DNA of 32,000 nucleotides from Mycolicibacterium sp. (lineage in GTDB: Bacteria; Actinomycetota; Actinomycetes; Mycobacteriales; Mycobacteriaceae). Where the stretch lies: the NCBI RefSeq assembly GCF_050175175.1, contig NZ_JBFXJE010000030.1; one strand, 5' to 3'. The translations under genes were made by a program, and so were the position numbers. Below are positions 13,752 through 29,405 of the stretch, piece after piece (within the stretch, counting starts at the first letter, position 1; every line of letters starts with the position of its first letter). The notes beneath the pieces were generated by a model. The model ran no database searches, was not told the DNA's origin, and saw only the letters and a list, made by a program, of their open reading frames with translations.

Positions 13752-15263
13752 CTACAGTCGCAGGTTCCGCAACAGGTCGTACACACCGGCGGTCCACAGC
13801 AGCAGTGGGATGATCGCGGCGATCGCGGCGCCGTCGACGAGTTCGAGAACCCGCCTGGCGATCGGCGATACCCGCCGGACACCATCTGTTGCGGCAACCA
13901 CGATCATCGCGACCAGTGCGAGCCCGGTGTACAGGGCCAACGGCAACCAGGAGCACCCCGGATACCACAGGCACAGCCGCACCATCAAGCCGGCCGGAAC
14001 GGCCACCGCTGCCGCCATCAATGCCCATGCGCACCAGCGCTCGGCATAGAGCCGGGAGCGGAAGCCACATACGATCGTCACCAGGCCGGCGACGACAAGA
14101 CCATGGACGAAGAAGTGGCCTCGAACTACCACCGCCACCGCCCCGATGGACGAAATGCAGGCACCTGCCGTCAGGAAACCGATCAACAACTGGCGGGCGA
14201 GGACGCTCCGCTCGGAGAGACGCACAGCGGAATCGGGCACTGACGCGATGATCGCCTGCCAGGTCTCAGCACTCTCGGTGTCAGCGGCCATCTCGACGGG
14301 ATCCAGCAACTCGTCGCTGGACACCGCCTCCCCGGGCGCTGGAATCGGCGGTAAGGCTATCCGTGCCACAGCCACCGTGAGCTTGGCCGCATTGGTCACC
14401 GCCATCAATCCGAAGGCAATGGCACCCGCGGGTACCCAACTGCCCCAGCCGTATCCGAACGCGACCGCGGCCAGTGTCGCCGCCGCCGCTGCTACGGCAA
14501 GAAATGTTGCGATGGTGGCTCTGCCCCGCGGGCCTCCGCGGGTCACCAGGGCGAACAAGAACACCAGCGCGCCCGCACCGGCGATCTGTGGCGCCCCGAG
14601 CGAGTCGACTGCGCGGGGCAGTGGGATAGCCAGCGCCACTCCCACGCTCAACGTGAGCAGTGACGACGCCAGCAGGCTTTCGGCCATATCCAGGTCGCCG
14701 TGACGGTTCTGCACGAGTCTGCTGCCAGCTGCCAAGGCCGAACCCAGCAGCACCAGCGCTACCGCCCACCACCAGTGGCGCTCGGTAGCGGCCCACGAGA
14801 TGGCCGCGACGCAGGCGGTCGTCAATGTTGCACACGGCAGAACTACCGCGATGAAGCCGTACAGAGCCCGGCGATCGAATCGCGGCGCTTCATCGACCAC
14901 CGCGATTGCGTCTATCACGTCCTCGACTAGGGGCCGGTACCGTTCGGTGCGGCTGACCGGCACCGCGATCAGCAACGCTCCGTCGACCACTCCGGCATCG
15001 GTGAGAGATTCGGTGGGCTTGATCGGTGGGCCGCCCGGGCGCGCGAAGGACCATTGTCCCTGGGCGCCGAAGTCAAAGCCCGCTAATGCTTCTGAGGGCG
15101 CATCCGCGAGAAGTTCACCCAAAACGGCCACTGTTTCGTCGATATAGGTCTCGATCGGAACAGCTGATGGCAGCACGAGGTCGGTCATTCGCCGACCAGT
15201 CAACAACGTGACGCGAGTGGTCGCAGGTCGAGCGGGCGCCGCACTCGGAGGGGACGCGATCAA
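13752..15263 (-). CDS. eccD: EccD, ESX (type VII secretion) polytopic membrane core component, ESX-1-like
   Basis: ...ARPATTRVTLLTGRRMTDLVLPSAVPIETYIDETVAVLGELL... is the ubiquitin-like N-domain, followed by about 11 TM segments. It is collinear with, and highly similar to, my recollection of M. tuberculosis EccD1 (e.g. SRTERYRPLVEDVIDAIAV, NAAKLTVAVARIALPPIP, VVRGHFFVH, FRSRLYAERWCAWAL). TTG start at 15263 overlaps the espI stop (TTGA). Confidence 0.95.
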   Translation of the reverse strand: MIASPPSAAPARPATTRVTLLTGRRMTDLVLPSAVPIETYIDETVAVLGELLADAPSEALAGFDFGAQGQWSFARPGGPPIKPTESLTDAGVVDGALLIAVPVSRTERYRPLVEDVIDAIAVVDEAPRFDRRALYGFIAVVLPCATLTTACVAAISWAATERHWWWAVALVLLGSALAAGSRLVQNRHGDLDMAESLLASSLLTLSVGVALAIPLPRAVDSLGAPQIAGAGALVFLFALVTRGGPRGRATIATFLAVAAAAATLAAVAFGYGWGSWVPAGAIAFGLMAVTNAAKLTVAVARIALPPIPAPGEAVSSDELLDPVEMAADTESAETWQAIIASVPDSAVRLSERSVLARQLLIGFLTAGACISSIGAVAVVVRGHFFVHGLVVAGLVTIVCGFRSRLYAERWCAWALMAAAVAVPAGLMVRLCLWYPGCSWLPLALYTGLALVAMIVVAATDGVRRVSPIARRVLELVDGAAIAAIIPLLLWTAGVYDLLRNLRL

Positions 15264-28121: not shown

Positions 28122-29405
28122 CTATTCCGGGGGTCTGGTGGCGGCAGGTGGCACGGTCGGCCGCACGGGCTGTTCAGGCTGGGAGACCGACCCGGGTAGG
28201 GCTTGGCGGGCATCGTCGCCGGTACCCGCTTCGGCGCTGGGTGGCGCCGCGGCATCGTCGTCCGATCCTGGGGCGTCCGATCCTGGGGCGTCCGATCCTG
28301 GGTCGTCCGGCCAGTCCGTGGCTTCTGGTTCCTGTGTTCCCGACTCAGGTGTTCCCTGTTCGCGGGTCGCGTCGTCCGTTGCGGCGATGTCTGATTCGGT
28401 GAGCGTCGCCAGCGACTGCCCCGCCATGCCGACGGCCCCCGTCAATGCGGCGGCCAGTGGGGCGACCAGTGAGCCGATCATTCCGCCCACGGCGCCGAAC
28501 GCCGGAGCTATCCCCGACATCATCTCGGTCGCCGGTGCGGGTGATTGTGCGGTCCCCGCAACTCCGCCAACCCGAGCCGCAGTTTCCGGGATTGTGCGAT
28601 GCGATAGTGAAACCGTTTGCGCCACAGGATTTTTCGGTGTTTCCGACGGCCTTGTGCTGGGCGCGGAGTCCGAAACCCGGGTGCGGGTATCCGGTGGAGG
28701 CACCCGCTGATCGGGTTGGCCGGTCTCGGGCGGCTGATGTGTCGAAGGCGGCAGCGCCGGCGGGTCATCCAGGTCGGGCAATTCCGACTCGCGAATCAGC
28801 CCTGAGTACTCATCAGCCAGCCCACCCAGTTCTTGGGCGTTCTCACCGGCCTCGGTGGAGAGCTGATAGAGCTCAATGCTGCAGATGCTCAAAGCGGCGT
28901 TCACGGCGGCAAGTTCGACCGCAGCCTTCATCGCTCTCCCGACGCCGGGGATGAGGGCGATGGGCCAGGTCAGGTAGGCGAGATCGGCTAGACGATCCGA
29001 CTGCTCATCCAGCTTGGCGCGGTGATATGCGATTTGGTGGGCCTCTCGGGCGATCACCTTCTGTACGTTGCGATCCAGCGCCGCCATCGATTCGATTCGG
29101 CTGGATTGACGACGGTTGGCCGTCGCGTAGGCCTGTGCCCCGGACCCCCGCCAGTCGTCTAGGGGGAAAGCTGAACCCAGTGTCGTACCTGCACCGGCAA
29201 ATCGCGCCGAACCCGTACCGAACAGGTCGCCTCGATCGGGGTCACCCGATCCCGTGGTGAGACGCATCCCCGCGATCACCGCCTGCCCGGCGTCGAGGAT
29301 TGGCGAACCGGCCGCCCCCTTGACCGCCTTTGCGACCTCTCCCCATCGCCCGGGAGACGACTCAAGAAATTTGCCAGCATGCTCGAATCGATCGAGCGAA
29401 ACCAT
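28122..29405 (-). CDS. espE: EspE/EspA-family ESX-1 secretion-associated protein
   Basis: The N-terminus has a WXG-like turn (DDWRGSGAQAYATANRRQ). Central hydrophobic segments follow, then a Pro/acidic low-complexity C-terminus. It is the first gene of the block, as espE is in the reference locus. ATG at 29405 is preceded by GGGGG 5 nt upstream. Confidence 0.6.
   Translation of the reverse strand: MVSLDRFEHAGKFLESSPGRWGEVAKAVKGAAGSPILDAGQAVIAGMRLTTGSGDPDRGDLFGTGSARFAGAGTTLGSAFPLDDWRGSGAQAYATANRRQSSRIESMAALDRNVQKVIAREAHQIAYHRAKLDEQSDRLADLAYLTWPIALIPGVGRAMKAAVELAAVNAALSICSIELYQLSTEAGENAQELGGLADEYSGLIRESELPDLDDPPALPPSTHQPPETGQPDQRVPPPDTRTRVSDSAPSTRPSETPKNPVAQTVSLSHRTIPETAARVGGVAGTAQSPAPATEMMSGIAPAFGAVGGMIGSLVAPLAAALTGAVGMAGQSLATLTESDIAATDDATREQGTPESGTQEPEATDWPDDPGSDAPGSDAPGSDDDAAAPPSAEAGTGDDARQALPGSVSQPEQPVRPTVPPAATRPPE
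28259..28310. repeat. About 3.5 copies of a 15-bp in-frame tandem repeat inside espE-like gene (encodes PGSDA x3)
   Basis: CGTCCGATCCTGGGG occurs at 28259-28273 and 28274-28288, CGTCCGATCCTGGGT at 28289-28303, and a partial CGTCCGG follows. Confidence 0.9.

Follow-up and report, generated by a model that had tools for sequence, protein, structure and literature searches.

An ESX-1 block that ends at eccD, at a non-ancestral site in a Mycolicibacterium metagenome-assembled genome

In a 32-kb stretch of DNA from an uncultured soil Mycolicibacterium (contig NZ_JBFXJE010000030.1; hereafter the window), which covers almost the entire ~33-kb contig of a metagenome bin, we identified a type VII secretion block of 14 consecutive full-length genes. 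The genes lie on the minus strand at 13752-29411 and run from espE to eccD in ESX-1 order. A first-pass annotation, made from the sequence alone, had listed this series; all 14 genes are present where it had placed them, with intact open reading frames (ORFs). The six 4-nt overlaps between neighboring genes that it had reported are likewise all found, reading, in order, ATGA, GTGA, ATGA, ATGA, ATGA and TTGA, and an additional overlap of 14 nt joins eccA and eccB.

The block opens with espE (28122-29411; 427-429 residues depending on the choice of start; Pfam EspA_EspE, 86.8 bits), for which a gene call also exists, and espF (27753-28103; 116 residues; Pfam T7SS_ESX_EspC, 68.4 bits). Overlapping espF by ATGA is espG (26836-27756; 306 residues; Pfam ESX-1_EspG, 169 bits), which encodes the putative PE/PPE chaperone. 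The next gene (26270-26839; 189 residues) had no family match in Pfam or NCBIfam; we label it espH by its position, its length and its 4-nt overlaps on both sides, and a 169-residue gene occupies the same position in M. cyprinidarum. Within it, a 9-nt tandem repeat of about seven or more units (26714-26803) encodes runs of H-G-I and H-S-D near the protein N-terminus. There follow eccA, for an AAA+ ATPase (24522-26273; 583 residues; TIGR03922; Pfam T7SS_EccA1_N, 284 bits), eccB (23084-24535; 483 residues; TIGR03919), eccCa (20859-23087; 742 residues; TIGR03924) and eccCb (19102-20862; 586 residues; TIGR03925). Walker A motifs number one in EccA (GPPGTGKT), one in EccCa and two in EccCb.

The remaining genes are PE (18636-18932; 98 residues, the same length as an existing gene call; Pfam PE), PPE (17340-18608; 422 residues; Pfam PPE, 165.7 bits), the CFP-10-like esxB (16949-17257; 102 residues) and the ESAT-6-like esxA (16637-16924; 95 residues), both matching WXG100, espI, for a ParA/MinD-like ATPase (15260-16552; 430 residues; CbiA/AAA_31 fold), and the last ESX gene, eccD (13752-15263; 503 residues from a TTG start versus 478 in the RefSeq call; TIGR03920; Pfam YukD and EccD). 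The scores of EccA (690 bits), EccB (517), EccCa (758), EccCb (655) and EccD (367) all exceed the NCBIfam equivalog cut-offs. The module is thus predicted to encode the EccA ATPase, the membrane core EccB, EccC (split into Ca and Cb) and EccD, a PE/PPE pair with its cognate EspG, the EsxB/EsxA pair, and the accessory proteins EspE, EspF, EspH and EspI.

By these families and by comparison with labeled references, the block is of the ESX-1 type rather than ESX-2 to ESX-5, as the first-pass annotation had held. We assign it to ESX-1 because (i) EccB scored 549-590 bits against EccB1 structures in PDB, as opposed to 260 against EccB3 and 222 against EccB5, and EspG scored 351 bits against EspG1 and 78 against EspG3; (ii) the best PDB matches of EsxA and EsxB are ESAT-6 (85 bits, 49% identity) and CFP-10 (66 bits, 44% identity), respectively; (iii) the EccA1_N model and the ESX-1-specific EspI N-terminal model NF047907 (31.5 bits, cut-off 30) both match; and (iv) espE and espF are present. 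The C-terminal YxxxD signal of EsxB is present as YLNTD, and the tryptophan of its WXG motif is absent; in EsxA the motif reads W-V-G.

The block ends cleanly after eccD, and the breakpoints on both sides are clean. When the window was searched by tblastn with EspJ, EspK, EspL, EspB, EccE and MycP families from relatives (including 26 EccE1 and 25 MycP1 sequences), no match was obtained for any of the six genes, even at E = 1, so that their absence, as previously stated, is upheld over the window. Nor did we find, at the breakpoints, fragments of these genes, of whiB6, of the ParA-type gene or of the ancestral neighbors of DUF4334; direct or inverted repeats flanking the block, or any repeat common to both junctions, were not found either. 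The left breakpoint is a 94-bp spacer (13658-13751) between the eccD stop codon and the start of a cytochrome b561/molybdopterin oxidoreductase gene (11891-13657, minus strand). This start, a GTG at 13657 preceded by AGGAGG, had already been proposed, and the N-terminus that it implies is conserved in relatives; an exact 588-residue gene call in Logan agrees with it, while the RefSeq call is 552 residues long and lies 202 bp downstream of eccD. In none of the nearest EccD relatives compared does this oxidoreductase follow eccD.

The window sequence is carried by two contigs of metagenome-assembled genomes (MAGs), 31,316 and 32,979 bp long (GCA_050248395.1 and a sibling assembly), each with 100% identity to the window and to the other, and its proteins are exact matches to a metagenome-assembled Mycolicibacterium sp. 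In addition, the Logan assembly of SRR27751817 contains a 14.5-kb contig identical to window 8430-22949. Because this independent assembly reproduces the junction between eccD and the oxidoreductase, together with 5 kb beyond it, the junction is not an artefact of the MAG assembler.

On the opposite side, a spacer of ~315 bp (29412-29726) separates espE from a conserved backbone anchor (29727-31602) that consists of a DUF4334/GXWXG gene (29727-30215, minus strand), a hisC/pat-like aminotransferase gene (30212-31276, minus strand; 82-88% identity to Mycolicibacterium orthologues), tRNA-Ser(gct) (31372-31461, plus strand) and tRNA-Arg(acg) (31529-31602, plus strand), a flank that the first-pass annotation had described correctly. 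We compared this anchor in two relatives, M. chubuense NBB4 and a 338-kb metagenome contig that holds the closest hisC match (88% identity). In both, the order tRNA-Arg(acg)-tRNA-Ser(gct)-hisC-DUF4334 is kept with no ESX genes beside it, and DUF4334 is followed by a gene of 150-156 residues, an enoyl-CoA hydratase gene, tRNA-Ser(tga), and MarR and alcohol dehydrogenase genes. On the 5.58-Mb chromosome of M. chubuense NBB4, ESX-1 lies at 57-79 kb, with whiB-type and ParA-type genes on its upstream side and HPr/phosphotransferase system (PTS) genes on its downstream side, and hisC-DUF4334 lies at 5.20 Mb. Since hisC-DUF4334 continues into unrelated genes in the relatives, with ESX-1 elsewhere, the block occupies a non-ancestral site. 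The suggestion that both flanks are non-canonical is borne out by these comparisons, which place ESX-1 away from hisC-DUF4334.

We then considered how the block compares with the ESX-1 loci of related species. The nearest relatives of its EccD are 61-74% identical, and all stem from ESX-1 loci of Mycolicibacterium or Mycobacterium. The usual layout of these loci is eccD, an espJ-like gene and large esp genes, followed on the opposite strand, 0.3-9 kb away, by espL, espB, eccE and mycP; the gene directly past eccD in canonical loci is espJ or espB. However, about 22 of the ~60 related loci with enough flanking sequence have no esp gene, eccE or mycP within 10 kb of eccD. Stopping after eccD is thus not rare, being seen in about one-third of related species, contrary to the rarity that the first-pass annotation had implied. 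That annotation had also considered that close relatives might carry exactly the arrangement of the window; an analogous arrangement does occur among them, but an identical one was not found.

Analogues come from the M. flavescens group (M. flavescens, M. celeriflavum, M. lehmannii, M. neumannii and others), where an unknown gene, an acyl-CoA dehydrogenase gene and a FUSC gene stand directly behind eccD. This split arrangement is represented by two loci each from M. flavescens and M. celeriflavum and by six further loci. The distant back module was examined in M. flavescens and M. celeriflavum: in both, mycP-eccE-espB-espL lies more than 18 kb from eccD (the 10-kb flanks do not overlap), surrounded by cytochrome P450, TetR, methyltransferase and glycosyltransferase genes, and its EccE is 81-82% identical to the ESX-1 EccE1 of relatives. 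The FUSC gene, which lies 5 kb after eccD in M. flavescens, follows mycP in other species; it is therefore the back module that was moved out. A literature search found no published description of a split ESX-1 in fast growers.

Other loci have changed in different ways. A MAG from a neighboring accession series (L093; GCA_050250295.1, contig JBFWOX010000024.1) carries ~6 kb of cargo (11618-17407) between eccD and espL-espB-eccE-mycP, with SnoaL, cupin, cytochrome P450, luciferase-like monooxygenase and LysR genes. Because of this cargo and of the separation of eccD from the back module in the M. flavescens group, the interval past eccD is a recurrent site of insertion and separation. A deletion resembling that of region of difference 1 (RD1), from espH to the 5' part of espI, was seen in M. 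chubuense, M. hodleri and several other species (the M. chubuense locus and five others). In M. chubuense NBB4 (CP003053.1, 57-79 kb), where espE-espF-espG runs straight into the 3' remainder of espI and then eccD, it removes espH, eccA, eccB, eccCa/eccCb, PE, PPE, esxB and esxA, although espJ, espK, espL, espB, eccE and mycP are retained. In Mycobacterium sp. GA-1285, both the core genes and the back module are missing and eccD is intact. As a separate observation, in the fish-associated M. cyprinidarum (DRR311244, DRR311243), whose EsxA is at least 90% identical to that of the window, the ESX-1 contig ends 50 bp past eccD and espB-eccE-mycP-HPr-PTS lies on another contig, an assembly break at this same hot spot.

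To place the block in terms of divergence, its proteins were compared with those of the nearest clade (M. vanbaalenii, M. iranicum and M. cyprinidarum-like) and the latter with one another. Identity between window and clade, as opposed to identity within the clade, is 73% versus 84% for EccB, 82% versus 90% for EccCa, 84% versus 90% for EccCb, 72% versus 83% for EccD, 68% versus 84% for EspI, 63% versus 84% for PE and 66% versus 82% for PPE. The corresponding values are 88% (up to 92%) versus 90% for EsxB, 79% (up to 91%) versus 83% for EsxA and 82-87% versus 85-91% for hisC. Across other Mycolicibacterium, identity to the window proteins is 84-92% for EsxB, up to 91% for EsxA and 65-85%, mostly 65-75%, for EccB, EccD and EspI. 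The notion of a fast-evolving or paralogous EsxA/EsxB pair, advanced in the first-pass annotation, is not supported, since no protein of the block is better conserved than EsxB; the entire clade shares the low identity to M. tuberculosis (EsxA 49%, EsxB 44%).

The distance to outgroups is likewise greater for the ESX proteins of the window than for those of the nearest clade, and a shift of this kind, though of smaller size, is seen with hisC. The additional divergence of the machine proteins may reflect a generally long branch of a lower-GC lineage, or a relaxed or altered constraint on a relocated block. Acceleration specific to the block was considered as well and set aside, as with hisC as the one backbone gene a long branch is inseparable from relaxed constraint. 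Foreign origin is not indicated by composition: the GC content at third codon positions (GC3) is 0.74 in the ESX genes and 0.78-0.84 in the flanks, an offset equal to that of the native M. chubuense locus. Plasmid origin was likewise rejected, given that megablast against PLSDB returned no nucleotide match and that the best plasmid EccB is 46-47% identical.

At the codon level, 71-74% of esxB codons at conserved residues are identical, versus 50-61% for eccB, eccC and eccD. Synonymous identity in esxB is 73-74% between the window and its relatives and 71-73% among the relatives, which points to a strong codon- or mRNA-level constraint on esxB throughout the clade, as observed with nine related loci; gene conversion or recombination of esxBA was discarded as an explanation on the same grounds, the synonymous identity being equally high among relatives. 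We also noted two types of EsxB/EsxA among relatives whose EccB, EccC and EccD are equally similar to those of the window, EsxB being 51-60% identical to the window protein in four loci and 84-92% in seven; across species, then, the EsxB/EsxA pair does not vary in step with the machine.

The most likely reading, to which we give a probability of about one-half, is that the block belongs to a bipartite ESX-1 whose back module lies off the contig. A rearrangement would have separated the front module (espE-eccD) of a chromosomal ESX-1 from its back module (espL-espB-eccE-mycP) and placed it beside hisC-DUF4334, away from the ancestral ESX-1 site; another part of the chromosome would provide EccE and the mycosin MycP in trans, as in M. 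flavescens and M. celeriflavum. We favor this reading because the ESX-1 ORFs are intact, the Walker A and YxxxD motifs are kept, the site is non-ancestral and there are precedents for unlinked modules, as well as because the post-eccD interval takes up cargo, the eccD junction was reproduced and the GC3 offset is native-like. That the genome contains a back module, and that the resulting system functions, we infer. Several points weigh against a bipartite ESX-1. No EccE, MycP, EspB or EspL of this organism was found, and the contig ends in insertion sequence (IS) fragments. None of the best 120 of 555 EccE1 matches, all at least 80% identical, is an EccE attributable to this MAG, an absence that is uninformative, since the EccE of the sibling MAG L093 is also missing among these 120. 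Between window and nearest clade, the machine proteins diverge by 8-11 points more than they do inside that clade, an excess that could mean relaxed constraint. The DUF4334-espE junction is backed only by the two MAG contigs, which are mutually identical and hence not independent. Finally, intact ORFs are no proof of function, because eroded ESX-1 loci, such as those of GA-1285 and M. chubuense, keep a full-length eccD.

The three alternatives that the first-pass annotation had set out, namely components encoded elsewhere, a translocated or duplicated copy, and decay, remain the right set. Decay would mean that the back module was lost at the rearrangement and that the 14 genes are a non-functional remnant in which disabling mutations have yet to appear. 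ESX-1 erosion is common in this group (RD1-like deletions; GA-1285), the ESX proteins of the window are on a longer branch and IS debris lies close by, all of which speaks for decay, but we regard it as unlikely: all 14 ORFs are intact over 15.7 kb with coupling overlaps and ATPase motifs preserved, EsxB and EccC are still highly conserved, and the adjacent IS copies are degraded (87% identity between arms, truncated ORFs), pointing to rearrangements that are not recent. Rather unlikely, in our estimation, is a paralogous second copy, a duplicated or horizontally acquired partial ESX-1 that, like ESX-6 of M. marinum, would use the EccE and MycP of a native locus. No second eccD attributable to this MAG was seen among the best 120 EccD matches, and both 'Mycolicibacterium sp.' candidates come from other assemblies (GCA_044507965.1 and GCA_050250295.1); the GC3 offset, moreover, equals that of a native locus, and the conservation of esxB is clade-wide, synonymous sites included, with no sign of gene conversion. 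What speaks for a paralogue is the non-ancestral site with clean breakpoints on both sides, the documented partial duplication of ESX-1 in M. marinum (PMC13354803), the greater distance of the window from outgroups, and the finding that the distance of the machine, PE/PPE and EspI proteins to the nearest clade is 1.6-2.3 times that among the clade members, against a factor of only ~1.2-1.3 for hisC, EsxB and EsxA, a calibration in which the backbone is represented by the single gene hisC.

A more specific form of this idea, an ESX-6-like relocated paralogue outside the M. marinum group, with diverging EccA, EccB, EccC, EccD, PE/PPE and EspI, conserved EsxB/EsxA, and EccE and MycP provided by the native locus, strikes us as a long shot; if true, it would be a natural type VII secretion module that exchanges core parts in trans. 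An assembly chimera, in which an ESX-1 locus was joined to unrelated DNA of the same or another organism, is very improbable. Although the source is a short-read MAG, the two identical contigs are not independent and the contig ends in repeats, the Logan assembly of SRR27751817 reproduces the eccD-oxidoreductase junction, the two junctions have no repeat in common, and composition is even across both of them.

The non-ESX DNA beyond eccD (1-13657) was found to contain, as had been described, MFS transporter, amidohydrolase and FAD monooxygenase genes and then IS debris behind the oxidoreductase. The MFS transporter (10612-11871) and amidohydrolase (8793-10625) genes, on the plus strand, separate the oxidoreductase from the FAD monooxygenase (7520-8755, minus strand) over 8793-11871; in three soil-metagenome relatives (87-89% identity), the oxidoreductase adjoins the FAD monooxygenase or lies within ~0.9 kb of it. 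An attempt to derive the ancestral left flank from the context of the oxidoreductase was abandoned, as these relatives differ from one another upstream. Further left are an IS3 fragment (~7105-7253), a crotonyl-CoA carboxylase/reductase-like alcohol dehydrogenase gene (5837-7078, minus strand), an MMPL transporter gene (3344-5668, minus strand), an LCM methyltransferase gene (2313-3188, minus strand), IS3 remnants (898-1986) and an IstB fragment (535-891), together forming IS3/IS21 debris. A 149-nt inverted repeat (1838-1986 and 7105-7253; 87% complementary), made of 3' fragments of an IS3 transposase, brackets the methyltransferase-MMPL-crotonyl-CoA reductase segment, an arrangement reminiscent of a decayed composite transposon or of the scar of an inversion. 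With a GC3 of 0.64, versus 0.74-0.82 in its neighbors, the crotonyl-CoA carboxylase/reductase-like gene may have been acquired separately. Between tRNA-Ser(gct) and tRNA-Arg(acg), at the other end of the window, most of the spacer consists of two tandem 25-nt copies (88% identical; 31462-31511). An Rfam scan and a terminator/promoter scan returned nothing besides the two tRNAs.

ESX-1 is customarily pictured as a single contiguous locus with EccE and MycP as indispensable parts of its core. The comparisons presented here show instead that ESX-1 of environmental Mycolicibacterium behaves as two separable modules around a hot spot past eccD, with four types of change: (i) the back module is moved, (ii) cargo is inserted past eccD, (iii) the core is removed by an RD1-like deletion, or (iv) the front module stands at a new site, as in the window. 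What is new here is the non-ancestral site of the block and the commonness of ESX-1 loci that stop after eccD. If the split loci are functional, they would provide natural evidence that the ESX-1 membrane complex can be assembled from unlinked genes, as well as convenient material for studies of module compatibility. For annotation, the lesson is to search the whole genome before an ESX-1 block that stops at eccD is classed as incomplete or decaying.

Compared with canonical ESX-1 (M. tuberculosis Rv3864-Rv3883c; M. smegmatis MSMEG_0055-0083), the block of the window has the same espE-eccD order, the same split of eccCa and eccCb and the same translational coupling. It differs in lacking espJ, espK, espL, espB, eccE and mycP after eccD and the whiB6-type and ParA-type genes upstream, and in adjoining hisC-DUF4334. 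In the M. smegmatis gene order, the mid (mating identity) region likewise lies just past eccD. This region (Msmeg0069-0078) maps inside esx1, is polymorphic and bears IS elements (PMC9040860; PMC3706393). Genes of the mid type are missing from the window, where metabolic genes, transport genes and IS debris fill at least 13.7 kb in their place.

ESX-6 of M. marinum is a partial duplication of ESX-1 beside a complete ESX-1, with esxB/esxA (almost) identical to those of ESX-1; it comprises homologues of eccB1, PE35, PPE68 and esxB, copies of espB, and an additional esxA (esxA_2) (PMC13354803). Like the window block, it is a partial locus of the ESX-1 type that lies apart from the main one and carries an esxB and an esxA of its own (PMC13354803), but the gene contents of the two differ. 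With the plasmid-borne ESX-P systems the window block has the core ecc genes in common; however, its EccB is 72-75% identical to that of chromosomal ESX-1 versus 46-47% to plasmid EccB, and its right flank is syntenic with chromosomes. A further parallel in layout is found in the split ESX-1 loci of M. flavescens, M. celeriflavum, M. lehmannii and M. neumannii, in which, as in the window, non-ESX genes stand directly past eccD; in these species, however, the front module has stayed in its ancestral place and the back module is the one that moved, whereas in the window the new site is that of the front module, among other neighbors.

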